From: an uncultured Gammaproteobacteria bacterium
GTDB lineage: Bacteria > Patescibacteriota > Microgenomatia > Levybacterales > UBA12049
NCBI GenBank assembly: GCA_964523705.1
Contig: CAZFYA010000001.1
Span: forward strand, 185,420-249,419
Direction of reading: 5' to 3'
DNA length: 64,000 nucleotides
A model generated the notes under the pieces. The model did not search any database and was not told the origin of the DNA. It saw only the letters and a list, made by a program, of their open reading frames with translations. A program made the translations under genes and the position numbers. This document shows, one piece after another, positions 2,550 through 41,901 of this stretch; the stretch's first letter is position 1, and the number at the start of each line of letters is the position of its first letter.

Positions 2550-5225
2550 TTAATTATTACTTGGTGACATTTGTGTTCCATCATTTCCCATTACCGGTGG
2601 CGAAGTTTGTGGTTCATCTTGAACTACTTGACCGTTAAATGGCTGATTTACATTCTGCTGTCCTGTTTGCTGATTAGGGTTTTCCTCCTGCCCTTGATTT
2701 TGCTGTTGTTGATTTTGTGGTTGCGCTACTTTTGTAAAAGTAAATTGCTCTTTTTGTTTATCATAATCAATTTTTATCTTATCCCCTGAAACAAATGTTT
2801 TATTGATTATTAAAATTGCAATAGGGTTTTCAATTGATGTTTGGATAAGTCTTCTTAAAGGCCTTGCTCCATAAATTGGATCATAACCATCTTTAGCAAG
2901 TATTGCTAATGCTTCAGGTGTTACTTCAATATCAAACCCTTGAGTTTTTAAAAGCTTGCCGGTTGCACTAATTCCTAATTTTGCAACCTCTACCATATTT
3001 TTTTGAGTTAATGGCTCAAAAACAACTACGCCATCAAATCTATTTAAAAGTTCCGGTTTAAAGAATTTCCTAAGTTCCTCAACTAATAACTTATTTAATT
3101 CTTTAAACTTTTTAGCAACCTTATCTTCTGTTGTTTCTTCAGGCTTTACTTCCTGTGCAGGCTTTGTTTTATCACTCTTTTTATCATCTTTTCCAACTCC
3201 TAGTAATTCTTGCTGAATTAAAGCGCTTCCAATATTTGAAGTGGCAATGATAATAGTATTTTTAAAAGAAATTGTATTTCCCTTGTTATCAGTTAGTCTT
3301 CCATCCTCAAGGAGCTGAAGCATTATGTTAAAAACATCCGGATGAGCTTTTTCTATTTCATCAAGAAGCACTATTGAATATGGTTTTGTTCTAACTGCTT
3401 CTGTTAATTGTCCTCCCTCTTCATAACCAACATAACCGGGTGGTGCACCAATAAGTTTTGCAACCTCATGTTTTTCCATGTATTCACTCATATCCAGTCT
3501 TACCATGACATCTTCTCTGCCAAATAAAATCTCTGCTATGGTTTTAGCAAGTTCGGTTTTACCTACCCCCGTTGGACCAAGAAAAATAAAGGAGGAGATT
3601 GGTCGATTCATACTTGATAAACCTATTCTTCCTCTTCTGACTGCTTCTGAAACAACTGAAACAGCATTTTCCTGATTTATCAGTCTTTTATGAATTGTGT
3701 CTTCTAAGTGAAGCAGTTTTTCGCTTTCATTTTCAGTCAGTTTGGTAATTGGAATTCCGGTCCAACTGCTAACCACTTTTTCTATGTCTTCTCTTTTAAT
3801 TTGATTATCTTGTCTTTTCCCCTCGTTTAATTGAAGCCGTACTTCAGCTGCAGCCTCATCTAAAAGGTCTACTGCTTTATCCGGAAGATACCTTTCTCCT
3901 ATATATCTTTTAGAAAGCTTAACAGATTGCTTAATTGCTTCAGGAGTCATTACAACCTTATGAAAAGCTTCATATTTTGGTTTTAAAACATTTAACATTT
4001 CTATTGCATCTTCTTCCGATGGTTCTTCAACTAAAACAGGCTGAAACCGTCTTTCAAACGCCTTATCTTTTTCAAAGTGTTTTCTATATTCAGTAGTTGT
4101 AGTTGTACCAATTATTTGAAGCTGACCCCTGGCTAGAAACGGCTTTATAATATTTGAGGCATCCATTGCACCATCTGTATCACCTGCTCCAATTAAAGTG
4201 TGCACTTCGTCTATAAATAGTATGATTACTCCGCTTGAGGCTTGAGTTTCTTTAATAACACTTCTTAATCTTTCTTCAAATTCACCTCTATGAGAGGCAC
4301 CGGCAACCAAAGAGGATAAATCAAGCTGAATTATTCTTTTATTAGCTAAGTCTTTTGGTGCTTTTCCAGAAACTATATCCATTGCTAAACCCTCTACAAT
4401 AGCTGTTTTCCCAACTCCTGCTTCCCCAATGATAATCGGGTTATTCTTGGTTCTTCTAAGTAAAATGTGGATAAGTCTTTGAACTTCTCTATCTCTTTTG
4501 GTAATTGGATCTAATTTTCCATCCTTTGCCTGTTGAGTTAAGTCAATCCCGAATTGCTCAAGTGATGATTTTTTCCCGTGCATAAAACCTGATGATTTAG
4601 AAAGCTTTTCTTCAATCTTATCCTTACTTAAACCCTGGGACTGAAGCTGACTTGAAATTTGTGAGTTAGCTGAAAAAAGAATAATTAAAACATCTTCAGG
4701 GGAGATAAACTCAACTCCTCTTTTTTTAACCTGTTGATAGGCTTTTTCAAAAATTTGTTTTGAATCTTGACCTAGAGTTGGTTGTCCTGTAAAACTTCCC
4801 ATTACTTCTTTTGCTTGAATTTCTTTTGAAAGCTTTGAAACATCAACTGAAAAATCCGAAAGTAATTTATATACTTCACTGTCAAAAAGAAGAGCAAGTA
4901 ATAATTGCTCAGGCTCAATTGTTGCTTGTTGAATTCTTTTTGTCTCTGCTTGCGCTTGAGTTAAAACTTGAGACATTCTTGTATCCAAGTGGGACATAAC
5001 TGACATGTCTTGTCTTGTTTCAGGATTTATATTTGAGCCAACAATATTTGCCTGTTGAGGTTGCTGGGGTTGTTGCGGTTGTTGAACAGCTGATGGTTGG
5101 TATTGTGGACCAACATTAGGAATAGGCTGTTGGGGAACACCAAAGCTATTAACTGGCATATTAGTAGCTGTATTTTCAGCCACTTTTTCGTCTTGTTTTT
5201 TACTTGAAAATAAATTTCCAAACAT
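2550..5225 (-). CDS. Clp/Hsp100-family AAA+ chaperone with Clp_N domain and two AAA+ modules; no long M-domain (ClpA/ClpC-like architecture). It has Gln-rich low-complexity N- and C-terminal extensions
   Basis: Walker A motifs GEAGVGKTAIVEGLA and GPTGVGKTELAKT, Walker B IILFIDEVH, sensor-2 GARPLRRLIQ. Only about 20 aa separate DEAAAEV from WTGIP, where ClpB has about 125 aa. QPQQPQQPQQ sits at the N-terminus and QNQQQQNQGQ at the C-terminus. Confidence 0.85.
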   Translation of the reverse strand: MFGNLFSSKKQDEKVAENTATNMPVNSFGVPQQPIPNVGPQYQPSAVQQPQQPQQPQQANIVGSNINPETRQDMSVMSHLDTRMSQVLTQAQAETKRIQQATIEPEQLLLALLFDSEVYKLLSDFSVDVSKLSKEIQAKEVMGSFTGQPTLGQDSKQIFEKAYQQVKKRGVEFISPEDVLIILFSANSQISSQLQSQGLSKDKIEEKLSKSSGFMHGKKSSLEQFGIDLTQQAKDGKLDPITKRDREVQRLIHILLRRTKNNPIIIGEAGVGKTAIVEGLAMDIVSGKAPKDLANKRIIQLDLSSLVAGASHRGEFEERLRSVIKETQASSGVIILFIDEVHTLIGAGDTDGAMDASNIIKPFLARGQLQIIGTTTTTEYRKHFEKDKAFERRFQPVLVEEPSEEDAIEMLNVLKPKYEAFHKVVMTPEAIKQSVKLSKRYIGERYLPDKAVDLLDEAAAEVRLQLNEGKRQDNQIKREDIEKVVSSWTGIPITKLTENESEKLLHLEDTIHKRLINQENAVSVVSEAVRRGRIGLSSMNRPISSFIFLGPTGVGKTELAKTIAEILFGREDVMVRLDMSEYMEKHEVAKLIGAPPGYVGYEEGGQLTEAVRTKPYSIVLLDEIEKAHPDVFNIMLQLLEDGRLTDNKGNTISFKNTIIIATSNIGSALIQQELLGVGKDDKKSDKTKPAQEVKPEETTEDKVAKKFKELNKLLVEELRKFFKPELLNRFDGVVVFEPLTQKNMVEVAKLGISATGKLLKTQGFDIEVTPEALAILAKDGYDPIYGARPLRRLIQTSIENPIAILIINKTFVSGDKIKIDYDKQKEQFTFTKVAQPQNQQQQNQGQEENPNQQTGQQNVNQPFNGQVVQDEPQTSPPVMGNDGTQMSPSNN

Positions 5226-5258: not shown

Positions 5259-7700
5259 CTAATTTTTTACTGTCTCTTTTTTATCCTCTTTTGGTATCTC
5301 CGCCTTTGCTTCAGCGTGCATTTTTTTAGGCTCCTCATGTTTCCTTCGAGTTGCATCAACCATGGTTTCTTCCTCTTCTTCTTTTTTGCCAAGTTCCGCA
5401 AATACTGTTTTTGCTGCTTCAAGTTTTGCTTTAAGATAAGCAATTACCTCGGTTTGAGAAAATCCTCCGATAAGAAGGAATGGCAAGATTGTTCCAACCT
5501 CCTCCATGCCTTTATTAACATTTTTATTATCAGATGAGGCTAAAAGATTAATTGTTTCATCAATTTTATCCATGTCTTCTTTTACCCATTCTTCTCTACT
5601 TCTTACTTTCCCCTCAAGAGCCTTTGGCACTTCTAGCTCATGATAATTTTCAGTCCAAATCTTTTTAACTGATTCATAGTCATCAATATTTACAGACTGT
5701 ACTCTGTTTACCACCGGGAAGGTTTCATGAGTTTCGCCAAGCTCTGTAATTCCTGCTTGTTGTAAAACCTGACTGGCAATACTACTTCCTCTTTCTTTTG
5801 CTTCTTTAAGTTTTTGCCTTAAATCCTCACTTATTTCTCCATCTCCCTTATCAACTGTTGCCAAAATGGATGTAGCCAGCGTATCCCCATTTGCTTTTGC
5901 TTTTAATAACTCCTCTTTAAGCTCGGTTGCTTTTTGCTTATCATAAGCTGAAGCGATTTTGTCCGGTTTTGCCAACTGGTTAATAACTTCTGTTAGCTTT
6001 GCATTTTCAGCTGCCTGACCAAGAACCTTTGAGGGCGAAGCACCTGAAGCAATGTTTGACGCTGTAATAACTGAATTTGCAAGATTATTTCCCTTAAGTT
6101 TTTCTGCAACCAATTGATTTTTAACCGATGAATATTTCTCTCGCTCGCTACTTGAGCTAATTCCCTTAGGATTAGCTATTTTTTCTAAAGTTTCATGCAT
6201 CTTAGCAACATTTTGTCTCCTGCTAAGGTCATGGGACATTAAAGAAGTTTCATATCTTGCAATATCTGACATTGTTGGAATACTAAGGTTTGATAAATTG
6301 GCAATACGGGCATTTGCCTGGTTTATGTTCATATTAGCTGCTTGAGACATAAAGCTTGCGGCATCTGCCTTAACTTCTGGGATCTCAATTTTTGCACCAA
6401 ACGGAAGTCTTTTAGCAAGCCCTGCACCAAACGGCTTAACTGGCAGTGGCTGCTGCGGAGGAGGAGATGAAGGATTTACTTTTGCCATTAAATTAGAGCC
6501 TCTGGCTGCTAATTGCTTAAACCAATTATCCTCTCCTTCGCTTAAGGAATTAATATAATCGAGAAATATCTGTAAAAGTAAAAAGGGAAGAATTATAACT
6601 ACCCAAAGCATAAGAAGAGCAACAATATATAGAGCAAAAGTATCTTTATTGTTAACACTATTTGTTAAAGATAAGATTTGCTGTGGTCCGCCAAGTAAGA
6701 TATTTATAGCTGTTGGGTAAATAACTTCTGTATTTTTAGGAAAGTTTAGAGGTATATTTGTGTCTGATCGCCATATTTGAACAAGACCGGCTAAAAATAT
6801 TGCAAATAATGGACCGTATAATAACCAGCGGAAAAATTCACCAACCCAAATTTTAGCTGTGTTTCGAATCGGCGAATAAAACAAAAGAAGCGGGAAAATC
6901 GGCGAGATGATAATAAAGAACCATAAGATTATTTTTCTTAAAATTAAAATTCCAGACATTACATAATACGTTAAAGCAGTTAGTTTTACCAAAAGAAGTG
7001 AGATAAAAACAGATTCATCAAATTCCGGTCCGTAAATTCTAAAACCTTGAAAATCCTTGTAATTAAAGCCGATATTTAAAAGGTTTTTTTGAGAAATACA
7101 ACTACTAACATTAGTAGTACTACAAGTTTGACTAGCTCCAGGCACTGTTAAGAAAAAGCCCTGAATAATATCCATTACTTGGTAAATAAACTGAATTAGA
7201 GCAAAGGAAAAAGTAATTAAAAGTACAATTAAAATAAATCTTGGAATAAAACGCATTACCGTAATGTTTTTACCTCTGGTAACAATCAGCACAAATGCTG
7301 TTCCTAGAATGAATAGAATTAAAAAGGCATAAGTAATATTTCTAATATTTGCCCAAAAGGCAGCAATTGGATTTTGTTGTCCTTCTCCTACATAAGACCA
7401 GTTATATCGCTGTAGTGTCCAATCCAAAAACTCTCCTGATCTGGCCCCTGCTTTTCCAACAAAAGTAACATCAGCATCTCTTATCCATTGTCCTTCAGGA
7501 CTTGTTTCATCAGCTAAAACTTCTTTTACAGGTTCTTGTTCTTCTGATAAAACAGGGGATTCAACTAAATCATAAGATTCTTCCTGTTGCTGTATATCTT
7601 GTTGAGGCATTGGTGTTTGAGCAGAAACAGAAAATGAACTAAACAGAAAGATTGTTAAAAATAAAAATGTAGTAAAAACCAGGGCAGTTAGTTTTTTCAT
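5259..7700 (-). CDS. Large polytopic membrane protein: signal peptide, about 100-aa exported domain, at least 7 TM helices, about 400-aa C-terminal charged coiled-coil domain; tentatively VirB6/TrbL-like
   Basis: Signal peptide MKKLTALVFTTFLFLTIFLFSSFSVSAQ. Multiple long hydrophobic helices fall in residues about 120-400. The C-terminal half is rich in K/E/A heptad-like sequence. It lies 5 nt downstream of the small 2-TM protein. Confidence 0.6.
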   Translation of the reverse strand: MKKLTALVFTTFLFLTIFLFSSFSVSAQTPMPQQDIQQQEESYDLVESPVLSEEQEPVKEVLADETSPEGQWIRDADVTFVGKAGARSGEFLDWTLQRYNWSYVGEGQQNPIAAFWANIRNITYAFLILFILGTAFVLIVTRGKNITVMRFIPRFILIVLLITFSFALIQFIYQVMDIIQGFFLTVPGASQTCSTTNVSSCISQKNLLNIGFNYKDFQGFRIYGPEFDESVFISLLLVKLTALTYYVMSGILILRKIILWFFIIISPIFPLLLFYSPIRNTAKIWVGEFFRWLLYGPLFAIFLAGLVQIWRSDTNIPLNFPKNTEVIYPTAINILLGGPQQILSLTNSVNNKDTFALYIVALLMLWVVIILPFLLLQIFLDYINSLSEGEDNWFKQLAARGSNLMAKVNPSSPPPQQPLPVKPFGAGLAKRLPFGAKIEIPEVKADAASFMSQAANMNINQANARIANLSNLSIPTMSDIARYETSLMSHDLSRRQNVAKMHETLEKIANPKGISSSSEREKYSSVKNQLVAEKLKGNNLANSVITASNIASGASPSKVLGQAAENAKLTEVINQLAKPDKIASAYDKQKATELKEELLKAKANGDTLATSILATVDKGDGEISEDLRQKLKEAKERGSSIASQVLQQAGITELGETHETFPVVNRVQSVNIDDYESVKKIWTENYHELEVPKALEGKVRSREEWVKEDMDKIDETINLLASSDNKNVNKGMEEVGTILPFLLIGGFSQTEVIAYLKAKLEAAKTVFAELGKKEEEEETMVDATRRKHEEPKKMHAEAKAEIPKEDKKETVKN

Positions 7701-7705
7701 AAATT

Positions 7706-7999
7706 TTAGCTAAATCCGGGAATTTGCAGTACATCAACTGCAATTACTTCAATAAAAACATAACCAAAAACCGCTAATAATAAGCCAATGATTGCATATA
7801 TAATATAGCTTTTTCCCTCTTTTAATCTATCGGGATTTCCTCTTGAGGTGGTAATTATATAACCACCATAAATAATAAAAATTAAAGCAACTCCACCAAT
7901 TAAGCCTAAGCCAATACCGTAAAACTTGGACACAAAGCCGGGAACTGTGTTTGGAATACAACCAAGCTCTGTCCAAGTCTCATTTACTTGACAGTTCAT
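7706..7999 (-). CDS. Small 97-aa two-TM membrane protein with N-terminal Cys pair; tentatively TrbC/VirB2-type pilin-like
   Basis: MNCQVNETWTELGCIPN, then helix FYGIGLGLIGGVALIFIIYGGYII, a short charged loop RGNPDRLKEGKS, and helix YIIYAIIGLLLAVFGYVFIEVIA. It lies between dnaJ and the 813-aa membrane protein with 26-nt and 5-nt gaps. Confidence 0.55.
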   Translation of the reverse strand: MNCQVNETWTELGCIPNTVPGFVSKFYGIGLGLIGGVALIFIIYGGYIITTSRGNPDRLKEGKSYIIYAIIGLLLAVFGYVFIEVIAVDVLQIPGFS

Positions 8000-8025
8000 A
8001 AATAAATCGTAGCATATTTTAGGGG

Positions 8026-8916
8026 TTAAAACCAGCTTCTTTTTTTGGTGTTTTCTTTGTCAAACTCCTCTAAAATTGACTTTTGTTTTGAGGTTAAATG
8101 TTTTGGAACAGTAACTTTAATTTTTACATAGTGGTCTCCCTTACCAGAACCTCTTACATGTTTTATGCCTTTTTGAGCAAGTCTGATAATGGTTTGCGGT
8201 TGAGTACCCGAGGGGATTCTAATTTTTACAATTCCATCAACTGTTTCAATTTCTTCCTGTCCGCCTAGAGCTGCTTTAGAAAATGGAATTTCTTTTTCCG
8301 AAACTACATCATATCCTTGTCTTTGAAATTTTTTATCCGGTCTAACCCTAACTATTACATCGTAATCTCCAAAACTTATCCTTGAACCATTATCAATGCC
8401 TTGGGGAATTTTTACAGTTTGCTCTCTCCCATCAATTGAAATTCTTTTCTGTACTCCTTTAACCGCTTCCATAAAATCAATAGTTAAAGAATAGGTTGGT
8501 TTTCTTTGTCGTCTGCCAAAAGGTGATGCTCCGCCAAAAAATTGCTCAAAAATCTCAAAAGGATCTGTAAATCCACCAAAATCAAAATCTCCGCCCTGAT
8601 TAGAAGTTGTATAGGTATAAGTAAAAGGACCATATTGTCCACCAAACGGACCGCCACCCCCAAATGGACCTTGTCCTCCTGGCCCTCCCTGTTCAAAAGC
8701 TTGATGCCCAAACTGATCGTAAGTTTGTCTTTTTTGAGGATCTGATAAAACTTCGTATGCTTTAGTTACTTCTTTAAATTTTTGCTCTGCTTCTTTTCCC
8801 TTATTTCTATCCGGATGGTACTGCAAAGCTAATTTTCGATAAGCTTTTTTTATTTCATCAGCCGTTGCTGATTTTGTAAGACCAAGTGTTTGATAATAAT
8901 CTTTTGTAGCTGCCAT
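8026..8916 (-). CDS. dnaJ: DnaJ-family J-domain co-chaperone, class II (CbpA-like; no CxxCxGxG zinc finger)
   Basis: J domain DYYQTLGL...YRKLALQYHPDRNKG with HPD motif, then a Gly/Phe-rich region and a C-terminal substrate-binding domain. It sits last in the hrcA-grpE-dnaK-dnaJ order. A TAA stop was verified. Confidence 0.8.
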   Translation of the reverse strand: MAATKDYYQTLGLTKSATADEIKKAYRKLALQYHPDRNKGKEAEQKFKEVTKAYEVLSDPQKRQTYDQFGHQAFEQGGPGGQGPFGGGGPFGGQYGPFTYTYTTSNQGGDFDFGGFTDPFEIFEQFFGGASPFGRRQRKPTYSLTIDFMEAVKGVQKRISIDGREQTVKIPQGIDNGSRISFGDYDVIVRVRPDKKFQRQGYDVVSEKEIPFSKAALGGQEEIETVDGIVKIRIPSGTQPQTIIRLAQKGIKHVRGSGKGDHYVKIKVTVPKHLTSKQKSILEEFDKENTKKRSWF

Positions 8917-12320: not shown

Positions 12321-14372
12321 ATGCAAGCTAAGTTTAAAAAAATTAATCTTTTTCTAAAAGAATATCAAGAATTTATTATAACTGCCCTTTGTTTTATTTT
12401 TTCTTATGTTTTTATTTTTACAACTCTTGATACAAGCTTTTTAATAACAAATACCACTGTTACCGGTGGCGATACAGGCTCTCATGTTTATATTCCCTAT
12501 TACTTAAAAGAGATTTTCCCACTAATAAAATGGTGGTCACCGGATTGGTACAGCGGGTTTCCCTTTTTCTACTTTTATCCTCCCTTATTTTACGTATTAA
12601 CAGTTATTTTAAGTTTTGTAATTTCACTTAATATTTCTTTTAAGCTTGTTATCTTTTCTGTTATCCTCCTATACCCTCTTTCTTTTTATTTAACCTTAAA
12701 ATGGCTAGGTTTAAAAACACCAATTCCTCAATTAGGAATGCTTTTTAGTCTATTTATAATTTTTCTTGAAAAGTTTTCAATTTACGGAGGAAATCTTCCA
12801 AGTCTTTTATCAGGGCAGTTTTCGCACACCGCAAGTATTGCTTTTCTGTTTATGTTTTTAGGATTAATGTATAAAGGTTTAAAAGAGAAAAAATATCTTA
12901 TTCTAAATATTCTTTTAGGGTCGGCCATTATTCTTTCTCACCCAACTTCAGGTCTTCTTTTAATTATCCTCTCACCCTTTTTTATTTTTCAAAAAAGAAA
13001 TTTTAAAGAAAATCTATTTTTTGTTTTTTATGTTTATTTGGGGATATTTTTAATTACATCTTTTTGGACATTAAGTCTTGTCTATTATCAAGGATATGCC
13101 GGTGTAATGAGGTGGACAAAAGAAATCCGCTTAGATTATTTATTCCCAAATCATTGGCTTTTGCTAAATGCTTCAGCTTTGTTTGGATTCTTACTGGCAA
13201 TTATTAAAAAAGAGACAAGGTTTTTAGTAGCAATTGCACTTACTGCTATTTGTCTACTTGCTTACTTTTTTCTTGATAATTTTGGGGTTTGGAATACACG
13301 CTTTTTACCCTACATTTTGTTTGCTAATCTTTTATTTGCCGCTTATTTTATCGGGTATCTAATTTTATTTTTTAAAAAGGGCTTTATTATATTTTCCTAT
13401 TTAATTGTGCTTTTGATTATTTTCTTTTCTCTTTTTTCCTTAAAGGAGAATATAAACTACAGTCCTTATTGGTTTAAGTGGAATTTTGAAGGTTATCAGG
13501 CAAAGTCAGTATATAAGGAGTTGGATAATTTATTTTCATATTTAAAAACTTTACCTCAAGGAAGAGTAATGTGGGAATATCATCCTGATTTTAATAAATA
13601 TGGCACCCCAAGGGTTTTAGAAACATTAACAGTGTTTACAAACCATCCAACTTTTGAAGGACTATTAATTGAATCAGGCCTAAGCGGTTCTTTTCACTTT
13701 ATTAATCAAACCGAAACTTCAGAAAACCCAACTGCTGCAATTGCCGGTTTTTCTTATCCTCCTTTTAATTTTGAAAGGGGCATTACTCATCTTCAAATGT
13801 CTGGGGCAAAATATTTTATTGCTTATTCTCAAAAAATTAAAACTGAGGCAGATAAAACCCAAAAAATTATTAAGCTAAAAACAATTACTCCATTTAGCAT
13901 TTATGAAATACCTAACTCTGAACTTGTTGAGAAAATAAATAATTTCTCTATTCAGAAAAAAGGAAAAGATTGGCTAAGTAAATCAATTGAGTGGTATAAG
14001 GGGAATGACTTAGAGCAACCAATTGTTTTTGTAGAAAACGAAGAACAAAAAGAAGAGCTTACAAAAATTCAAAATAGTATAACTAATACAGTAGTTAAAA
14101 ACATAAAAACAACTAATGATTCTATTGAATTTGATGTAGATAAGATTAATCAACCATACATTGTAAAGATTTCCTACTTTCCAACCTGGAAGGCAGAAGG
14201 TGCTAAAGGGCCATTTTTAATTTCTCCTGCTTACATGATGGTTATCCCAAATCAAAATCATGTAAAACTATATTTTTCTTATGGTTTTATTGATTACTTG
14301 GGAATAATATTAACTATTTTTGGAGTCGGATATTTGTTTTTAATTAAGCGGATTTACAAGGAAAAACAATAA
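12321..14372 (+). CDS. 683-aa polytopic membrane protein with large C-terminal soluble domain; GT-C-fold glycosyltransferase-like
   Basis: About 12 hydrophobic helices in the N-terminal 360 residues with Trp/Tyr/Phe-rich loops (GGDTGSHVYIPYY, WWSPDWYSGFPFFYFYPP), then a 300-aa hydrophilic domain. Confidence 0.4.
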   Translation: MQAKFKKINLFLKEYQEFIITALCFIFSYVFIFTTLDTSFLITNTTVTGGDTGSHVYIPYYLKEIFPLIKWWSPDWYSGFPFFYFYPPLFYVLTVILSFVISLNISFKLVIFSVILLYPLSFYLTLKWLGLKTPIPQLGMLFSLFIIFLEKFSIYGGNLPSLLSGQFSHTASIAFLFMFLGLMYKGLKEKKYLILNILLGSAIILSHPTSGLLLIILSPFFIFQKRNFKENLFFVFYVYLGIFLITSFWTLSLVYYQGYAGVMRWTKEIRLDYLFPNHWLLLNASALFGFLLAIIKKETRFLVAIALTAICLLAYFFLDNFGVWNTRFLPYILFANLLFAAYFIGYLILFFKKGFIIFSYLIVLLIIFFSLFSLKENINYSPYWFKWNFEGYQAKSVYKELDNLFSYLKTLPQGRVMWEYHPDFNKYGTPRVLETLTVFTNHPTFEGLLIESGLSGSFHFINQTETSENPTAAIAGFSYPPFNFERGITHLQMSGAKYFIAYSQKIKTEADKTQKIIKLKTITPFSIYEIPNSELVEKINNFSIQKKGKDWLSKSIEWYKGNDLEQPIVFVENEEQKEELTKIQNSITNTVVKNIKTTNDSIEFDVDKINQPYIVKISYFPTWKAEGAKGPFLISPAYMMVIPNQNHVKLYFSYGFIDYLGIILTIFGVGYLFLIKRIYKEKQ

Positions 14373-14374
14373 TC

Positions 14375-14710
14375 ATGAGGAAGAAAAAAACATATTATTG
14401 GTTTTTATTACCAAGTATCTTATCTTTAATAGGAATCGCCTATTTAATTATTTTTACTTCTCCTGAAAAAGGTTTTGATTTTCTAAGCTTTACAATTCCA
14501 AGCTTAATTAGTTTTTTTGCTTTAGTTTTTCTTTTTTTCTTTTCCTTAGTTTCATTTTTGTTTAAGAAAATAAAACATGGAATTTTTACTGGTCTTTTAA
14601 TAACTTCAATTTTACTTTTATTTTTATACAAACTGGCTCATGTTTATTTTATTCTTCTTCTGATTGCCCTTTTTATACTCTTGGAGTTTTTGTTCAAAAA
14701 AGATGTTTAA
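14375..14710 (+). CDS. Small three-TM membrane protein, unknown function
   Basis: Three long hydrophobic segments. It starts 3 nt after the preceding membrane gene. Confidence 0.45.
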   Translation: MRKKKTYYWFLLPSILSLIGIAYLIIFTSPEKGFDFLSFTIPSLISFFALVFLFFFSLVSFLFKKIKHGIFTGLLITSILLLFLYKLAHVYFILLLIALFILLEFLFKKDV

Positions 14711-14715
14711 AATGT

Positions 14716-15192
14716 TTAACTAAAAACAGTTGCTATCCAACTACCTACAAAACGGGTAATTAACACAACGACTAGAGCTATTAGCAAATGTTCTCCTACT
14801 ACTTTCCAGGCTTTTTCTTTGTTTTGCTTAGCAATAAAATAGCTAAAAATACCCAGTATTAAAAATCCCCAGACAACACTTACTAAAATTGCTTCTTGTA
14901 ATTCAAGAAGTAAAATAGGGACTATAAAAGTTGAAGCAAAAATTAATTTTGAGAGAAAAGTTGATATTGTTGATTCCCAAATTGATTTAGCAGAGTGTTT
15001 ACTTTGCGATTCTTGAGAAATATGAATACCTAAGGCATCTGAAAAACTATCAGCAATGGCAATTGTTAAAATTCCACCTATAATTACAAGCTTTGAATGA
15101 GTACTGGCATCAAGTCCTACAATTAAACCAAGAGTAGTAATTATTCCCGAGGTTAATCCAAAACTAAAACCGGTTATTACTGAAAGCTTCAT
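14716..15192 (-). CDS. VIT1/CCC1-family (DUF125)-like small membrane protein, putative Fe/Mn transporter
   Basis: Five TM helices. The G-F-S-F-G-L-T-S-G-I-I-T-T-L-G glycine-rich first helix resembles the VIT family. Confidence 0.35.
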   Translation of the reverse strand: MKLSVITGFSFGLTSGIITTLGLIVGLDASTHSKLVIIGGILTIAIADSFSDALGIHISQESQSKHSAKSIWESTISTFLSKLIFASTFIVPILLLELQEAILVSVVWGFLILGIFSYFIAKQNKEKAWKVVGEHLLIALVVVLITRFVGSWIATVFS

Positions 15193-15250
15193 AAATAAAT
15201 TATAACAAATACACTATTGCTCTAAGGAATAAATGATATTAGAACTTATT

Positions 15251-15697
15251 TTATAAATTTATTTCACTAATTAATTGTTGCTTCAGAGCTTTCAATTCTT
15301 TTCCCCTAGACTTACTATCTTTTCCAAATATAATTTTTTCATCCATCGCCCAAATAGGTTTAGTTGGATTTGGATCATTAAAGTATCTCGGAATTATCCA
15401 CCAGTGCAAATGACAATCCTTATTCCCTAATAATTCATAATTTATTTTTTGAGGCTTAAATGCCTTAAAAACAGACTCTGCTACATCAGCCATTTCTGTT
15501 AAAAAAACATCACGAAATTTTTTATCTAATTCACAAAGCTCCCTTTTGTGAACTTTTGACAAAAAAAGAGTTAATCCTTTATAAAACTGGTTATCTGCAA
15601 GTACAACATAACCCGTAGAAAGCTCTTTAATAAAGTAAGGGTTAGCGTTTTTTTTAATCAGCTGAATACGCTCACAAATGAGACAATTATTTCCCAT
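15251..15697 (-). CDS. HIT (histidine triad) superfamily hydrolase-like protein with variant H-L-H-W-W motif
   Basis: N-terminal CLICERI (CxxC-like). Central ADNQFYKGLTLFLSKVH, and C-terminal NKDCHLHWWIIPRY where canonical HIT has HxHxHxx. Confidence 0.5.
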   Translation of the reverse strand: MGNNCLICERIQLIKKNANPYFIKELSTGYVVLADNQFYKGLTLFLSKVHKRELCELDKKFRDVFLTEMADVAESVFKAFKPQKINYELLGNKDCHLHWWIIPRYFNDPNPTKPIWAMDEKIIFGKDSKSRGKELKALKQQLISEINL

Positions 15698-15836
15698 GCC
15701 ACCTAATTATATCAGACTTTTGAACCTAAATACCGTGTTTCGGGGAGTGTTGAGCGCTAGCGAAATCCTGAAGTTTTTTGAAGGGGATGCTCGAGTCTAC
15801 TTTAGGAAAAATTATTAGATATGTTATTATTATTTA

Positions 15837-16118
15837 ATGAGACCTAATCCTATTTATTATGTTTACATCGTTGAATGTTCGGACGGAAGCTATTACATTG
15901 GTCAAACTAATAATTTAAAATTAAGACTACAAGAACATAATACAGACACCCCAAAAGATGGAGCAAAATATACAAGAGCTAAAAGACCGGTAACCCTTCA
16001 ACATTTTGAAACCTTTCAAACCAGAAGTGAAGCAATGAAAAGAGAATATGAGCTAAAACAATTAAAACATATTGAGAAAAAAGTTATTTGCGCTAATGGA
16101 AATAAAATTGGTTATTAA
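15837..16118 (+). CDS. GIY-YIG nuclease superfamily protein (YhbQ/UPF0213-like)
   Basis: YYVYIVECSDGSYYIGQTNNLKLRLQEHN gives the GIY-YIG core. Confidence 0.8.
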   Translation: MRPNPIYYVYIVECSDGSYYIGQTNNLKLRLQEHNTDTPKDGAKYTRAKRPVTLQHFETFQTRSEAMKREYELKQLKHIEKKVICANGNKIGY

Positions 16119-16531
16119 ACTATCTTAAACAAGTTATTTTTTAATTTTCCGATGTTTTCCGGGGTTTTATCTGCATATTCCCTGCCGACCACTTGGCAGA
16201 ACCCAAAATAAAAATCTATATTTCCATCCTTTTTGAGTAAATTAACAAATCTTTCGTTAAATTTCTTTTCCTTAATTGTCTTTTGTATGAAACGATTTTT
16301 GATCTTTGGCATTATTTCTAAATTATTGTTTAGCTTTGCAATATAAGTTTCTTTTGCAATATTTAAGCCGATATTTAAAATTTCATAAATATCTTCTTTA
16401 AGAATTTTATCTCTAGAGGCTTCTAATAAGTAAGTTAAATCTTCTACCTCTTTATTTATGCTTGTTTGAATATTCGCATTTATCTTCTTGTCAAATTTAT
16501 TAGCAAATTTCTTAAGTAAATTATTATTCAT
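16115..16531 (-). CDS. Hypothetical protein, 138 aa, Lys/Asn-rich
   Basis: Open frame only; no recognisable motif. Confidence 0.4.
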   Translation of the reverse strand: MNNNLLKKFANKFDKKINANIQTSINKEVEDLTYLLEASRDKILKEDIYEILNIGLNIAKETYIAKLNNNLEIMPKIKNRFIQKTIKEKKFNERFVNLLKKDGNIDFYFGFCQVVGREYADKTPENIGKLKNNLFKIV

Positions 16532-16618
16532 AAAGAGATTATAACAAACTTACTCTTATTAGTTACTTTATAATAGTCTGGGAGATGGCTTGAAGCTTAA
16601 GGGAGTTGCGAGAAACTA

Positions 16619-16646
16619 CCGAGGATTTTCCCGCCCCTCGGTTTTT
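16619..16646 (+). terminator. Rho-independent terminator-like hairpin (ACCGAGG-loop-CCTCGGT followed by TTTTT)
   Basis: A 7-bp GC-rich stem with an 11-nt loop and a T-run, in the 16532-16663 spacer. Confidence 0.4.
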
Positions 16647-16663
16647 GTGTTTATAATGTAATT

Positions 16664-16930
16664 ATGAAGTTATATAACTTTGAAAAACATTATCTTTACC
16701 TTGCAAGATATAAAGGTTTTATGTTTTTGAAAAAAGTTTTAAGCACTGATGCTGGAGTATTTATTTTTGCAATCGTATTATTCTTCATATTACTATTCAT
16801 TATCTGTTTTATCTTAGATTATTTTCTAATAGGCGTGGATGTATTTTTAATAAAAACCCACTTAAAAGAACCGTTGATGCAAAAAGTTTCTCTTATAAAA
16901 CCCTATATAGATTCTTTTATCGCTGAATAA
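16664..16930 (+). CDS. Hypothetical 88-aa membrane protein
   Basis: One long hydrophobic segment (VFIFAIVLFFILLFIICFILDYFLIGV). Confidence 0.4.
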   Translation: MKLYNFEKHYLYLARYKGFMFLKKVLSTDAGVFIFAIVLFFILLFIICFILDYFLIGVDVFLIKTHLKEPLMQKVSLIKPYIDSFIAE

Positions 16931-17067
16931 TTTTTGTTACCCAATATGACTGTTTTTTTTCGTCAATAAGTTTTAATTTAAAATTGTAATTTGCCTTATC
17001 ACCCTTATATTTCAAACTAATTACACCAAAACCTATAACTTTTTGCTTGAAATTTCCATAATTCTCT

Positions 17068-17247: not shown

Positions 17248-17261
17248 GTCCCACACAATGT

Positions 17262-17290
17262 TTGACAAATTATTAAGGTAGACTTATAAT
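17262..17290 (+). promoter_or_regulatory. Consensus sigma70 promoter TTGACA-N17-TATAAT, followed by strong RBS GGAGGGAGGTG, for the RiPP precursor gene
   Basis: TTGACA is at 17262-17267, a 17-nt spacer follows, and TATAAT is at 17285-17290. The RBS is at 17303-17313, 7 nt before the ATG at 17321. Confidence 0.6.
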
Positions 17291-17320
17291 CACCCAAAGT
17301 ACGGAGGGAGGTGAATAAGA

Positions 17321-17506
17321 ATGTCAAATTTAGAAATTCAAAGAAACGCAAGGAACTTAATGGCTGACTCTAAAGAGTTTACAGCTTATTCCAGAAACAA
17401 GAAAGACAAGACTGATTTAACTCCGAATTGTTCAGTTCCGAATTGCGCATTGCCTTGTAAACCACCACCATCACCACCTGGTTGTAAGGCATGTAGAAAA
17501 TCATAG
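17321..17506 (+). CDS. TOMM/LAP-type RiPP precursor peptide (61 aa): hydrophilic leader plus Cys/Ser/Thr/Pro-rich core TPNCSVPNCALPCKPPPSPPGCKACRKS
   Basis: Small ORF with a perfect promoter and RBS, immediately upstream of the YcaO, SagB-dehydrogenase and M16-peptidase genes. It has 5 Cys and 5 Ser/Thr in its last 28 residues. Confidence 0.7.
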   Translation: MSNLEIQRNARNLMADSKEFTAYSRNKKDKTDLTPNCSVPNCALPCKPPPSPPGCKACRKS

Positions 17507-17520
17507 GTTACAAATCTAGA

Positions 17521-17543
17521 TAAGTAATAATTTTTATTACTTA
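17521..17543 (+). terminator. AT-rich perfect hairpin (TAAGTAATAA-TTT-TTATTACTTA) between precursor and modification genes; likely partial terminator/attenuator
   Basis: A 10-bp perfect inverted repeat, 14 nt after the precursor stop and 16 nt before the YcaO start. Confidence 0.4.
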
Positions 17544-17558
17544 GTATTCAATTGATGT

Positions 17559-18884
17559 TTGTTACATATGAAAAACTCTAAATTAGAGAAAGATATGTTG
17601 GCAAATTCTCTAGAAAGAGCTGCTAAATTTGCAAACAATAGTAATTTTATTACAAATATTTATAAGGTTCCCCTATATAATGATGACCCTAAAATATTCG
17701 CCTATTCAGCAACGTACAAACTTAAGTATAAAAATAACGAAGATGTAGCGAATGGATTTTCTTTCTTTAAAAATATTGCCTTGATGAGAGTACTGGGAGA
17801 AGGAGTAGAACGCTATTGCCTAGATCATTTTTCTCCTAAAAACACCTGTTTTTGTAAGGAAAGTGAAGTTAAAACCTATCATTTAAACCCACTTAAAATA
17901 ATTGCTTTTTCATCTAAGCAACTTAAGAACAATAATTTTAATAAGTTTAGAATAGATGATACGTCTCTGTTTGGATGGACTAAAGGAGTATCTCTTACTA
18001 AGAAAAAAGATGTCCTTGTACCTTCTCAACTAGTTATCTTTAACTATGTAACGTTAAAAAATGAACCAAGAATCTTATCCTCAATCTCTACAGGCGCTGC
18101 ATCTGGATTATCGCTAGAAGATGCTTTATATAGGGCAATCTGTGAAATCGTTGAAAGGGATGCATTTATGATAAGCTACCTCAATAAACTTAATTCTCCA
18201 CGATTAGATCTGTTATCAATTGGTGATCCTGCAATCAATAAAATTCTTAATACCTATGCTCGGTATAAACTAGAACTGGCTGTAATTGACATTACAACTA
18301 ATTTACAAATTCCAGCATTTGTCGCCATCACTTTGGACAGAACCGGTATAGGACCTGCTACATCCGTAGGACTTAAAGCAGGATTTAATATTAAAGATGC
18401 TATAATTGGAGCAATTGAAGAATCTCTAATGACTAGGTCTTGGCAACGAGACAACCATACATATAATAATCTTAGGGAACGAAAGCAAAAAAAAGAGATC
18501 CTTCAAGAATTAACAGAAAAAGCTTGTTTCTGGTTTTCTATAGATAAAATCAAGCACCTTGATTTTTGGCTAAATAATAAAAATGTTAAAAAAATTAATA
18601 TCAAAAAATATAAATACTCGAATAGCAATCTAAAAAAAGCGGTTCAAAAATTAACAGCAAAAAAAATGGAAATTATATATGTAGATATAACAACTGATAA
18701 GATTAAACAGTATGGCTTTACTACGGTAAAGGTAATTATCCCTGGATTACATCCTCTACATTTGGACGAAAAACATCCTTATTGGGGAGGAGAACGATTA
18801 TATAATGCTCCTATTGAGATGGGCTTGTTAAAAACAACTAAACATGAAAATGAATTAAATAAAATTCCTCACCCATTCTTATGA
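17559..18884 (+). CDS. YcaO-domain cyclodehydratase (SagD-like, TOMM D-protein)
   Basis: YcaO signature SISTGAASGLSLEDALYRAICEIVERDAF (GxAxG...ExxERD), 441 aa. It has a TTG start with an ATG 3 codons later, and a 4-nt ATGA overlap with the next gene. Confidence 0.8.
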   Translation: MLHMKNSKLEKDMLANSLERAAKFANNSNFITNIYKVPLYNDDPKIFAYSATYKLKYKNNEDVANGFSFFKNIALMRVLGEGVERYCLDHFSPKNTCFCKESEVKTYHLNPLKIIAFSSKQLKNNNFNKFRIDDTSLFGWTKGVSLTKKKDVLVPSQLVIFNYVTLKNEPRILSSISTGAASGLSLEDALYRAICEIVERDAFMISYLNKLNSPRLDLLSIGDPAINKILNTYARYKLELAVIDITTNLQIPAFVAITLDRTGIGPATSVGLKAGFNIKDAIIGAIEESLMTRSWQRDNHTYNNLRERKQKKEILQELTEKACFWFSIDKIKHLDFWLNNKNVKKINIKKYKYSNSNLKKAVQKLTAKKMEIIYVDITTDKIKQYGFTTVKVIIPGLHPLHLDEKHPYWGGERLYNAPIEMGLLKTTKHENELNKIPHPFL

Positions 18885-19666
18885 AAACAAATAACACTAA
18901 GATATTATTGGAAAAAATTGAAGGCAAACAATCTGTTTCAGACAAATTTCATTCTTTTACAAATAACAAAATTTTAGGTGTTAAAATAAACAGAAAATAC
19001 GCTCCCCCTCAATCATGGATAAAAATTCATTTTAAGACTTATCCCCGTCTAAACAGAATTAAACTTAATAGTAAGATAGAAAAAAATAAAACAGGTAAAT
19101 TATCCAACATAATTGAGCAAAGAAAATCTTTTAGAAAGTTTTCAGGTCTATCTATCACAAAAAACGATCTTTCTTATCTATTACTTTATTCATGCGGATT
19201 GATAAGGTTGGGAAAATCATTCGATGATTCCAGAAGGCCTTATCCATCTGCAGGGGCGAGATACCCTTTGGAAATATACCCACTTATACTAAAGTGTGAA
19301 GAAATAGAAAATGGTCTATATCATTACAATGTTAAGGAACATTCATTAGAATTATTGTTAAAAGAAAACTTAAGCAATTGGCTTCTCAAAACTACTGGCG
19401 GAGAAAATTGGATGACAAAAGCTTCTGTGATATTTATAATTACAGGCGTTCTAGATAGAACAAGAGTAAAATATGGAGACCGAGGATATAGATATGTTTT
19501 AATTGAAGCAGGTCATGTGGGACAAAATATTTGTCTTTTATCAACAGACTTGGGATTAGGAAGTTGCGCCATAGGAGGATATATAGATCAGGAGGTAAAT
19601 AAACTATTAGATATTAATTTACAAAAAGAAAATACGTTATATATGTTTGCTGTTGGTAAATTATGA
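18881..19666 (+). CDS. SagB-type FMN-dependent dehydrogenase (McbC-like, nitroreductase fold) for azoline-to-azole oxidation
   Basis: RRPYPSAGARYPLEIYP, GLYHYN, and KYGDRGYRYVLIEAGHVGQNICLLSTDLGLGSCAIGGY. There are ATGA overlaps on both sides. Confidence 0.8.
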   Translation: MKTNNTKILLEKIEGKQSVSDKFHSFTNNKILGVKINRKYAPPQSWIKIHFKTYPRLNRIKLNSKIEKNKTGKLSNIIEQRKSFRKFSGLSITKNDLSYLLLYSCGLIRLGKSFDDSRRPYPSAGARYPLEIYPLILKCEEIENGLYHYNVKEHSLELLLKENLSNWLLKTTGGENWMTKASVIFIITGVLDRTRVKYGDRGYRYVLIEAGHVGQNICLLSTDLGLGSCAIGGYIDQEVNKLLDINLQKENTLYMFAVGKL

Positions 19667-20955
19667 AAATTTCTTATAATAAATACAATCTTCCAAACGG
19701 ACTTACTGTGATTCTTCAGCCCATGCCCTTTGTAAATTCAGTAGTTGTAAATGTTGTAGTGGGAGCAGGTCCACGTTTTGAAACTAAAAAATCTGCTGGT
19801 CTTGCTCATTTTCTCGAACACATGCTTTTTGAAGGGACAAAAAGGTTTCCTACAGCAAAGGACGTTGCCAGAAGAATAGAAAAAATCGGAGGCACTAGCA
19901 GGGCTTTTACTGAAAAGGAATACGTCTCCTATTATACAAAAATCCCAAAACAACATCTTAATGTAGCATTTGATTATTTGTCTGATATTCTATTCAATTC
20001 CTTATTAGAAAGCGACGTAATTGAAAAGGAAAAAAGAATTGTAATAGAGGAGTTGAGAAGATCTGAAGATAATCCAGAAGTAAATATATGGAATTTATGG
20101 CTAGAGTGGATATGGGGCAAGAATCAATCACTTGGTCGTTCTACTATGGGCGACGAAGTAACAATAAAAAAAATAACTAAACAAAAACTGCAAGATTATC
20201 TAGATATGCTTTATCATCCCTCAAATATGGCAATCGTAGTTACAGGAAACTTTTCCATAAAAGAAGCAAAAGAATATATTTTGAAATACTTTGGGAAAAC
20301 TCGATCAAAAAGTGTTCCACTCTTTAAAAGAGTAAGGTTTAATCACAAAAAAATACATACTAAAATTGTCCAATCAGATACAAAACAGGCACAACTGATT
20401 CTTGGATTTGTAACAGATATTTCTTATCATCACAAAGATCGTTTCTCAATACGGGCTATTGCAGATGTTTTAAGTGGAGGAATAAGCTCGCGACTTTCCA
20501 ATAAGCTTATTTATGAATTGGGAATCGCATATTCAGCGTGGGCATACACGTGGATTTTTTCTGATAACGGATTATTCTGTATTTCTGGTGGGTTTTCTCC
20601 TCGAAACTTAAAAAATGCAATAAAAGTGATCTTGGAAGAATTAAATAAATTAAAAAAGCGAAAGGTTGCAGAAACAGAATTAAAAGAAGCAAAAGAAAAA
20701 AACATAGCAGAACTCTTTTTTTCTTTGGAAACACCAGATGCAATGGCAAGTTTATATTCATCACAACAAATTACAGAAAAACAAATCATGACTCCAGAAA
20801 AAATTTCAACAAAAATAGATAAGGTAACAACAGAAGATATGTTGAGAGTGGCTAGAAAATATTTTAATCTTGAAAATTTAAGATTAATAATACATGGTCC
20901 TTTAAAAGAAAAGGAGATAATTTCTATAGAAAAGTTATTAAAACAAATGTCTTAA
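19663..20955 (+). CDS. M16-family (pitrilysin/insulinase-like) zinc metallopeptidase, candidate leader peptidase
   Basis: Inverted zinc motif HFLEHMLFEGT plus the downstream Glu in SRAFTEKEYVSYY, 430 aa. Confidence 0.8.
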   Translation: MKISYNKYNLPNGLTVILQPMPFVNSVVVNVVVGAGPRFETKKSAGLAHFLEHMLFEGTKRFPTAKDVARRIEKIGGTSRAFTEKEYVSYYTKIPKQHLNVAFDYLSDILFNSLLESDVIEKEKRIVIEELRRSEDNPEVNIWNLWLEWIWGKNQSLGRSTMGDEVTIKKITKQKLQDYLDMLYHPSNMAIVVTGNFSIKEAKEYILKYFGKTRSKSVPLFKRVRFNHKKIHTKIVQSDTKQAQLILGFVTDISYHHKDRFSIRAIADVLSGGISSRLSNKLIYELGIAYSAWAYTWIFSDNGLFCISGGFSPRNLKNAIKVILEELNKLKKRKVAETELKEAKEKNIAELFFSLETPDAMASLYSSQQITEKQIMTPEKISTKIDKVTTEDMLRVARKYFNLENLRLIIHGPLKEKEIISIEKLLKQMS

Positions 20956-40624: not shown

Positions 40625-41901
40625 GAATTGCAGTTTTAGGCGCAGGTTTTACAGGACTTTCAGCTGCTTATGAACTTACTAAAAGCGGTCATGAAGTTGT
40701 GCTTTTTGAAAAAAAATCTTTCCTGGGTGGACTTGCTTCAGGTTTTAAAGAAAGCAATTGGCAATGGCCATTAGAAAAATACTATCACCATTGTTTTGCA
40801 AATGATGACTCAATTCTTAAATTAGCAAAAGAGATTAACTTTCAGTTTTTAAAAACTAGACCAAAAACCTCAACGTATATAAAGGGGAAGTCATACCAGT
40901 TAGACTCTCCCTTAACGCTTTTATTTTTCCCACTACTTTCAATTTCACAAAGGCTTCGAATGGGCTTTGTAATTTTATACTTAAAATTAAATTCTAATTG
41001 GAAAAATTTAGAAAAAACAAAAGCCTCTGAATTTTTACCAAAGTTTATGGGCAAAAAAGCTTATAAAATGGTATGGGAACCTCTTTTTAAAAATAAATTT
41101 GGTGTTTATGCAAAAGAGATATCTTTAACCTGGTTTTGGGCCAGAATAAAAAAAAGAACTTCCTTTTTAACTTATCCTAAGGGAGGATTTCAAAACTTTA
41201 TTAATCACCTTTCTTCTGAAATTAAAAAAAACAAAGGTATTGTTTTTTTAGAAAATGAAGTCATTGAAATAAAGGAAAATAAAAAAGTATTGATTAAAGT
41301 AAAAGATAAATCTAGAAGGCAAAAAAATTATGAATTTGACAAGGTAATTTGCACAATTCCCTCAAGATCTTTTCTTAAAATTTCTACCTCATTACCAAAA
41401 GCTTATAAAGAGAAAATTTTAAAATTTAAGTATTTATGCGTACATAATCTCATTTTAAGACTAAAAAAACCATTATTAAAAAATGGTGTTTATTGGTTAA
41501 ATATTTGTGATTCAAAATCTCCAATTACTGGAATTGTTGAGCACACAAATTTTATAGATAAGAAGCACTATAATAATGAGCATATTGTCTACTTATTAAA
41601 CTATCTTAAAAAAGATGATAAAAAATATCAGATGGATGAAGAATTACTTCTTAAATTTTATGATCCATATTTAAAAAAAATAAAAAAAGACTATAAAAAT
41701 GATTTAATTAATACAAAATTATTTAAAGATGAGTTTGTGCAAACGATAATTTCTACAAATTATTCAAAAAATATCTTGCCATTCAAAACTCCTTTTAAGA
41801 ATGTTTTTTTGGCAAACATGGATCAAGTTTATCCTTGGGATAGAGGTACAAATTACGCAGTTGAGTTAGGAAAAAAAGTTGCAAAAATTTGCTGTGAATA
41901 A
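40621..41901 (+). CDS. FAD/NAD(P)-binding oxidoreductase (amine-oxidase / UDP-galactopyranose-mutase-like Rossmann fold)
   Basis: MRIAVLGAGFTGLSAAYELTKSGHEVVLFEKKSFLGGLASGF gives a dinucleotide-binding GxGxxG...E...GG pattern. Confidence 0.55.
   Translation: MRIAVLGAGFTGLSAAYELTKSGHEVVLFEKKSFLGGLASGFKESNWQWPLEKYYHHCFANDDSILKLAKEINFQFLKTRPKTSTYIKGKSYQLDSPLTLLFFPLLSISQRLRMGFVILYLKLNSNWKNLEKTKASEFLPKFMGKKAYKMVWEPLFKNKFGVYAKEISLTWFWARIKKRTSFLTYPKGGFQNFINHLSSEIKKNKGIVFLENEVIEIKENKKVLIKVKDKSRRQKNYEFDKVICTIPSRSFLKISTSLPKAYKEKILKFKYLCVHNLILRLKKPLLKNGVYWLNICDSKSPITGIVEHTNFIDKKHYNNEHIVYLLNYLKKDDKKYQMDEELLLKFYDPYLKKIKKDYKNDLINTKLFKDEFVQTIISTNYSKNILPFKTPFKNVFLANMDQVYPWDRGTNYAVELGKKVAKICCE

Follow-up and report, generated by a model that had tools for sequence, protein, structure and literature searches.

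Introduction

The closest described relatives of the genes considered here come from the Candidate Phyla Radiation (CPR). Sharrar et al. (2020) reported that Microgenomates_ANG_785 carries a precursor peptide gene beside genes for a YcaO protein, a nitroreductase and a peptidase, and proposed for it the same chemistry that we discuss below. Their survey also identified 110 clusters for peptides of the linear azol(in)e-containing type (LAPs) in 93 further CPR genomes. In 89 of these, the nitroreductase gene is beside that for YcaO (PMC7298704). Here, we describe a ~3.7 kb cassette, in the order precursor, YcaO, dehydrogenase, M16 peptidase, from a 64-kb stretch of a Levybacteria-like genome (contig CAZFYA010000001.1, positions 185,420 to 249,419; hereafter 'the window'). 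The cluster type is already known from genome mining, and has been known in the CPR since 2020.

LAPs, also called thiazole/oxazole-modified microcins (TOMMs), are peptides made on the ribosome and then modified after translation (RiPPs). In azole-forming LAP synthetases, an E1-like (C) or ThiF-like (F) partner of the YcaO protein binds the leader via a RiPP recognition element (RRE) 'in most cases' (PMC7136475). The bottromycin proteins BotC and BotCD are stand-alone YcaOs that work in the absence of an E1-like or ThiF partner; a thiazoline is the product of one of the two (PMC7136475, PMC8442711). They are the only characterised precedent for partner-free azoline formation. Finally, the uncharacterised 'anabaenasin' and 'haloazolisin' TOMM groups have precursors rich in Gly/Cys or in Ser, and either a 'unique C protein' or a truncated CD fusion (Cox et al., 2015; PMC4603692).

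Results

Four adjacent genes encode a predicted LAP pathway

A first-pass annotation, made from the sequence alone, had described the locus as a TOMM/LAP cluster of four co-directional genes, with ATGA overlaps joining the three enzyme genes. The layout is as described. Thus, there are four + strand open reading frames (ORFs), with ATGA at both the YcaO/dehydrogenase and dehydrogenase/M16 junctions. All four quoted signatures (one for YcaO, two for the dehydrogenase and the peptidase motif HFLEHMLFEGT) are in the translations. The precursor gene (window positions 17321–17506) encodes 61 amino acids and is already a called gene in public data. On the same strand lie a Shine–Dalgarno sequence read from the DNA (GGAGGGAGGTG, 17305–17315, ~6 nt 5' of the ATG) and a predicted σ70-type promoter, TTGACA-17 nt-TATAAT (17262–17290). 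The latter matches the consensus at 12 of 12 positions and is the single perfect match between 16900 and 21200. The cluster start proposed earlier, position 17259, is not the start of any ORF but falls at this promoter.

A perfect 10-bp inverted repeat, TAAGTAATAA-TTT-TTATTACTTA, is located between the precursor stop and the YcaO start (17521–17543). We considered an attenuator or terminator hairpin at this position and rejected it; the stability is like that of shuffled sequences (z = −0.68) and the repeat is not conserved across loci. An Rfam scan gave no match related to the cassette.

The enzyme identities assigned previously hold up against curated models. The gene for the YcaO cyclodehydratase (D protein; 17568–18884) encodes 438 amino acids from its ATG, the same length as the gene called in public data (P0001); starting at the in-frame TTG (17559) would extend this to 441. 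The protein scores 271.5 bits with TIGR03604, the SagD-family TOMM cyclodehydratase model (cut-off 219.25), and 189 bits with PF02624. An E-x-V-E-R-D motif is present and conserved family-wide. The SagB-type dehydrogenase (B protein; 18881–19666, 261 amino acids), predicted to oxidise azolines with flavin mononucleotide (FMN), scores 155.6 bits with TIGR03605 (SagB; cut-off 78.4) and also matches PF00881. Its relatives in the PDB are 3eo7, CyaGox and McbC. Residues K197 and Y198 are conserved in 92 and 100%, respectively, of 78 homologues. An RxxPSAG motif is conserved as well. The KY pair is the catalytic dyad of McbC (PMC8442711).

The last gene (19663–20955) encodes a 430-residue M16B zinc peptidase, predicted to remove the leader. 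Both M16 domains are found (PF00675, 113 bits; PF05193, 140 bits). The best PDB matches are 3hdi (E = 1.2e-53; residues 6–402 aligned to 3–393) and the mitochondrial processing peptidase beta subunit. The protein is M16B-like in having an inverted zinc motif (HFLEH at 49–53) with a downstream Glu, an active and an inactive half, and a length of ~430 residues. The HxxEH motif and the downstream EE (EKEK..IEE at 121–130) are kept in 22 of 22 loci with a cassette-linked M16 gene.

For comparison, we used 80 loci from a genome scan with two YcaO peptide patterns, one of which is the YNDEPK motif discussed below. The label 'CPR-type' for a locus rests only on YcaO clade and gene layout. The YcaO and SagB genes are adjacent in ~78 of the 80 loci. 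In most CPR-type loci the M16 gene comes next, overlapping or abutting the dehydrogenase gene, usually with a 4-nt overlap. We clustered neighbouring genes in 40 loci and only the four genes of the cassette were conserved; the flanks differ in every genome. No exporter, immunity, regulatory or additional tailoring gene was conserved with Microgenomates-type cassettes in this analysis. The nearest relative of the window YcaO among 5.8 billion proteins is just 65% identical, and the named homologues are from Roizman-, Gottesman-, Davies-, Levy-, Woese- and Shapirobacteria.

Taken together, the scores above model cut-offs, the conserved catalytic motifs and the conserved precursor family described below support assignment as a TOMM/LAP locus. 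We consider it likely that the four genes form a functional and self-contained LAP/TOMM RiPP cassette, lacking a partner protein and belonging to a group known in the CPR (Patescibacteria).

No E1-like partner is encoded near the cassette

The canonical third TOMM component, an E1-like (SagC) protein with an RRE, is absent; the first-pass annotation had overlooked this. The YcaO protein consists of the YcaO domain only, with no fused E1 or RRE domain. By sequence and fold, its closest solved structures are the cyanobactin and muscoride heterocyclases LynD (4v1t), TruD (4bs9) and MusD (7u58). These are fusions of ~780 residues with N-terminal RRE and E1-like domains, whereas the window protein corresponds to the C-terminal YcaO domain alone. 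The sequence matches to these YcaO domains have E-values of 2e-21 to 7e-19, with MusD best. An AlphaFold2 model of the window protein (pLDDT 81.7, pTM 0.87) was aligned by Foldseek, over approximately its full length, to the YcaO domains of LynD and MusD (TMq 0.75–0.79).

We searched for a partner encoded elsewhere. An iterative search that took in every six-frame ORF of the 64-kb window detected no E1-like or C protein, and Pfam scans of 44 window ORFs (40 of these are among its 61 ORFs of at least 100 residues) gave no E1, ThiF or RRE partner. Similarly, iterative searches within ~6 kb of YcaO in more than 30 CPR- or DPANN-type loci found no C protein in any CPR-type locus. Conversely, distant relatives have a gene family directly 5' of YcaO that encodes a C protein, scoring above the cut-off of TIGR03882 and also matching ThiF/E1 models. 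This gene adjoins YcaO in 40 loci. They belong to Nostocales, Acidobacteria and haloarchaea, together with a few other bacteria and two archaeal metagenome-assembled genomes. In a rough neighbour-joining tree, the C-less YcaO proteins form one large clade dominated by CPR and DPANN sequences. Two C-bearing archaeal loci (L019 and L025) are nested within it.

There is no room for a hidden RRE in any of the three enzymes. This is because the YcaO and M16 proteins align approximately end to end, the dehydrogenase has only ~55 residues outside the nitroreductase fold, and hhalign comparison of the YcaO and dehydrogenase N-termini with a C-protein profile was negative. A cryptic RRE in the dehydrogenase N-terminus was ruled out on the last two grounds. 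The ~70 N-terminal residues of YcaO, which are specific to the clade and include an invariant YNDEPK, were also considered as an added module that replaces the C protein. We rejected this candidate; the region has an ordinary YcaO fold according to Foldseek and, as above, hhalign was negative. The YNDEPK N-terminus and a C protein encoded in cis are nearly mutually exclusive across the loci (32 have the former, 39 the latter, one has both and eight have neither). The YNDEPK stretch lies on a standard fold element and may be no more than a clade signature, and its anti-correlation with the C protein may just reflect phylogeny.

The principal alternative is that the cassette belongs to a LAP system with a partner acting in trans, namely an E1-like or ThiF-like protein, or a discrete RRE protein, encoded outside the window. 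Nearly all characterised azole-forming YcaO proteins use such a partner (PMC7136475), and our search covered only 64 kb of the genome; against this stand the more than 30 homologous loci in which no E1-like homologue was found around YcaO. Cryptic partners have been missed before, since AmiB, of the streptamidine pathway, was recognised only via fold prediction (PMC8442711). However, no other conserved neighbour could serve as a cryptic partner here. Although L019 and L025 have kept a C protein inside the C-less clade, sister clades always place the C gene immediately 5' of YcaO (40 loci). Furthermore, the four genes move together and the closest relatives lack them, which argues against dependence on a distant gene. 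Hence, we regard a partner in trans as unlikely, and prefer the partner-less four-gene cassette.

The precursor family has a conserved leader and a Pro/Cys-rich core

The precursor has a leader (residues 1–33) and a predicted core (residues 34–61), TPNCSVPNCALPCKPPPSPPGCKACRKS, containing 5 Cys, 8 Pro, 3 Ser and 1 Thr. Across its Cys span the composition is 32% Pro and 23% Cys. Cores of the same subfamily are similar (35% Pro, 22% Cys and ~8% Ser plus Thr), with 4–8 Cys residues per core, C-x4-C the commonest spacing and Pro at position −1 of half of all Cys. The earlier description of the core as Cys/Ser/Thr/Pro-rich is therefore right for Pro and Cys, but with ~8% Ser plus Thr the family is not generically Cys/Ser/Thr-rich. 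The predicted product, judged from these sequences, would be rich in prolyl-thiazole units because the cores are Pro/Cys-rich with Pro preceding half of the Cys residues; five thiazoles are possible in the window peptide.

Relatives lacking a Cys-rich peptide had been named as grounds for abandoning the TOMM/LAP assignment. Instead, an ORF of 50–90 codons is found directly 5' of YcaO in almost every CPR-type locus. A small Cys-rich ORF adjoins YcaO in ~28 homologous loci, and in 13 of them the peptide has the leader motif of the window precursor. Alignment of the 14 precursors, including that of the window, defines this motif as hydrophobic-x-D-[A/S/T]-[K/R]-[E/D]-F. A hypervariable core follows, in which Cys is the one constant feature. 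In the window precursor the motif is D16-S-K-E-F20 (17366–17380), 16 residues ahead of the first Cys; across the family this distance is 11–18 residues. Leader and position are conserved even though the YcaO proteins of these loci are only 40–60% identical.

The family is visible only by positional inspection and with a hidden Markov model (HMM) of the leader, not by phmmer, which found one homologue of the window precursor (L002, E = 3e-09). The HMM was trained on the 13 homologous upstream ORFs, with the window sequence left out. Among 9,700 six-frame ORFs, the 61-residue ORF of the window was the sole significant match outside the training set (E = 7e-4). Other subclades have cores of Asp/Glu-Cys or Asn/Gly-Cys composition, or of a DPANN type, KCSGCRSCGGGCYGC.

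Two further loci are informative about precursor diversity. L004 has tandem precursor genes (1451–1660 and 1733–1954) with a common D-[A/S]-R-E-F leader and dissimilar Cys/Pro cores, as expected of a diversifying RiPP family. In the archaeal locus L023, a precursor-like ORF (7995–8168) with a Cys/Gly/Asn core is found 3' of the dehydrogenase gene rather than 5' of YcaO. The leader motif reaches beyond bacteria because this ORF contains LADATEF.

The constancy of Cys in the cores bears on a second alternative, in which the YcaO protein does not form Cys azoles and instead makes a thioamide or amidine, or is an ATP-dependent peptidase like MusD. YcaO proteins catalyse several reactions, and partner-independent YcaOs of methanogens form thioamides. 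Nevertheless, TIGR03604 is the sole NCBIfam model that the window protein matches above the model's own cut-off; the runner-up, TIGR03266 (McrA thioamidation YcaO), scores 93.6 bits against a cut-off of 365. The best PDB match, MusD, is an entry titled for ATP-dependent peptidase activity. Against this alternative as a whole, the YcaO C-terminus, ...NKIPHPFL, is of the azoline type, with P434, H435, P436, F437 and L438 invariant or nearly so in 22 homologues. The IPHPFL end aligns with the extreme C-termini of LynD (...NPTPMPF) and MusD, with Leu rather than Pro as the last residue. A Pro-rich C-terminus is typical of azoline-forming YcaO proteins (PMC8442711). In addition, almost every locus has an adjacent gene for a SagB-type dehydrogenase with the KY dyad, an enzyme that would have no role unless azolines were formed. 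Neither TfuA nor a sulfur-transfer gene was found in the window or among the conserved neighbours. A different chemistry is thus very improbable.

Variants of the cassette

Not all homologous loci encode an M16 peptidase. In three loci of the Asp/Glu-Cys subclade, a gene for a histidine phosphatase (PGM family) replaces the M16 gene after the dehydrogenase (L012:8131–8784, L016:8133–8786 and L027:3026–3685). Four DPANN loci have no M16 gene. Instead, paralogues of ~175–200 residues flank YcaO-SagB on both sides (L024:5378–5989 and 7991–8518; L025:4400–5011 and 7996–8601; L030:473–1021 and 3013–3531; L036:5454–6008 and 7942–8502). The upstream copies have a HELxH-like motif, which is degenerate in the downstream copies (e.g. 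LIHNL), and neither copy matches any NCBIfam family. These paralogues may represent a new kind of leader peptidase, or else a partner protein.

The cassette lies in a variable island between hrcA and metG

The window has a G+C content of ~30% and mainly encodes chaperones, cell-envelope glycosyltransferases, pilus parts and translation factors. Named relatives of its LepA and MetRS proteins are from Candidatus Levybacteria or Patescibacteria, with LepA relatives up to 91% identical. We compared the window with the three closest relatives available on long contigs (MetRS 74–78% identical). The order ClpB-DnaJ-DnaK-GrpE-HrcA ... MetRS-TatD-GT2-PMT-GT4-UbiA-PEGA/SH3 is kept in these relatives, and the interval between HrcA and MetRS varies. 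None of the three has the cassette. Because the closest relatives keep the flanking synteny without it, the cassette is accessory, inserted into a variable island (~12.3–21.0 kb) that separates hrcA from metG in this Levybacteria-like genome. The best identities of YcaO (65%) and LepA (91%) are consistent with this.

The genomic setting also bears on the suggestion that the enzymes modify a cellular protein, with the small ORF incidental, or that the cassette is a decaying relic. Some YcaO proteins do act on proteins (McrA, ribosomal proteins). In haloarchaea, every genome has a related ycaO, and knocking it out caused no clear antagonism phenotype (PMC9953058). Yet these ideas are scarcely credible for a cassette that is missing from the closest relatives, whose small ORF has the strongest promoter and Shine–Dalgarno sequence of the region and keeps its leader and position across divergent loci, and in which no ORF is broken, the catalytic residues are conserved and start and stop codons are coupled.

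Other features of the window

The part of the island preceding the cassette (12321–17000) contains a 683-residue ORF without a Pfam match, with length-matched counterparts of 687–692 residues in two relatives. Also encoded there are a membrane protein of the VIT1 family and a member of the HIT family, and two further small ORFs lack Pfam matches. A stand-alone 93-residue protein with a GIY-YIG nuclease domain is encoded in the same segment, and this gene might be linked to mobility of the island.

Elsewhere, the segments 134–2546 and 5259–7700 include genes that may have cell-surface or host-interaction roles typical of the CPR. One encodes an S8 subtilase of the secreted type, which combines a fervidolysin-like prodomain with an SdrD B-like domain; the ORF next to it has the prodomain only. 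Nearby is an 813-residue ORF with only a weak TrbL/VirB6-like match. An Rfam match at gathering level to RF03531 ('C. difficile sRNA included into helicase gene') was found at 49159–49256, inside an ORF for a UvrD-family helicase (47503–49380). Its most likely source is the conserved coding sequence of the helicase, not a small RNA. Two other ORFs, 41879–43549 (556 residues) and 55816–57372 (518 residues), have no Pfam match at E ≤ 1e-4.

Discussion

The locus has the same gene set and order, host group and predicted chemistry as the CPR clusters of Sharrar et al. The peptide itself differs in sequence from that of Microgenomates_ANG_785, and is 61 rather than 84 residues long. The earlier remark that a cluster of this kind would not be expected in so minimal a genome has been overtaken; the same layout was reported from Microgenomates, by a survey that found 110 LAP clusters in the CPR (PMC7298704). 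The text of that study makes no mention of an E1/ThiF partner, an RRE, a transporter, a leader motif, a Pro/Cys bias or an accessory-island location (PMC7298704). What goes beyond the literature is the absence of E1 and RRE throughout the clade, the conservation of a leader motif, the Pro/Cys chemotype of the cores and the location in an accessory island.

The cassette resembles SagBCD (streptolysin S), McbBCD (microcin B17) and the klebsazolicin and phazolicin systems in having a TIGR03604 D protein, a KY dehydrogenase and an adjacent precursor with a leader and a Cys-rich core. Unlike canonical TOMM/LAP synthetases, it has no C protein, fused or discrete, no ABC exporter and no immunity gene. 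Its dedicated protease is M16B, whereas canonical systems use CAAX-type proteases (SagE) or the host TldD/E. The cyanobactin and muscoride heterocyclases, to which the YcaO domain is closest, accept Pro-Cys and Pro-Thr contexts (aeruginosamide, muscoride). The next-nearest YcaO-SagB pairs in the genome scan are from Nostocales and haloarchaea (28–31% identity) and match the groups of Cox et al. by taxonomy only. Those loci differ from the one described here in having a discrete C protein directly 5' of YcaO and no M16 gene in the operon. The likeness to bottromycin is one of partner-free chemistry. Bottromycin differs in that its precursor has a follower in place of a leader, in its product, which has one thiazoline together with a macroamidine, and in having no such SagB-type dehydrogenase. 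TfuA-associated thioamide systems differ in having an adjacent TfuA gene and a YcaO protein of the thioamidation family (TIGR03266).

The families to which the four proteins belong suggest the following route. The 61-residue precursor would be transcribed from its own strong promoter, and the D-[A/S/T]-[K/R]-E-F leader motif would be the recognition handle. Using ATP, the YcaO protein would cyclodehydrate the five core Cys residues to thiazolines, and possibly some Ser or Thr; many of these Cys residues are in Pro-Cys units. The SagB-type FMN dehydrogenase would then oxidise the thiazolines to thiazoles. Finally, the translationally coupled M16B peptidase would cut off the leader, much as mitochondrial processing peptidase does with presequences. 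Because there is no E1-like or ThiF-like partner and no RRE, leader recognition would have to fall to the YcaO domain itself, the dehydrogenase or the peptidase.

Several points weigh against a functional, partner-less LAP cassette. Characterised azole-forming LAP synthetases 'in most cases' need a partner (PMC7136475). With Pro directly before half of its Cys residues, the core may be a poor substrate for some cyclodehydratases. The cassette is accompanied by neither an exporter gene nor an immunity gene, and this would be unusual for an antibiotic. Moreover, the literature yielded no experimental work on any YcaO cluster from the CPR or DPANN. The first-pass annotation had proposed an antimicrobial or cytolytic peptide. 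This gains no specific support, as exporter and immunity genes are not among the conserved neighbours of the cassette. A bioactive peptide that is secreted or delivered by contact is plausible but unsupported.

A broader proposal is that YcaO-SagB systems of the CPR/DPANN clade are minimal azole synthetases, independent of any partner and free of an RRE. The YcaO domain on its own (or the dehydrogenase or peptidase) would read the short linear motif D-x-K/R-E-F, and the system would make poly(prolyl-thiazole) peptides. Ultra-small episymbionts would carry such systems in accessory cassettes that are mobile, and the peptides would possibly act on hosts or competitors. We hold this tentatively, with slightly less than even confidence. 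If true, no complete LAP pathway smaller than this one would be known, and its YcaO would be the first leader-dependent, azole-forming example that needs no E1/ThiF.

The value of the locus as a discovery is moderate, because the class and its occurrence in the CPR were published in 2020. If its genes function as encoded, they make up a LAP pathway that is very compact (3.7 kb), easy to synthesise and free of an RRE or E1 partner; it would inform how YcaO proteins recognise substrates and could be a minimal scaffold for engineering. Products rich in Pro and thiazole would be a new LAP chemotype. The genomes of CPR bacteria (Patescibacteria) are tiny and have few biosynthetic pathways. Hence, a natural-product cassette retained in such a genome probably matters for the episymbiotic lifestyle.

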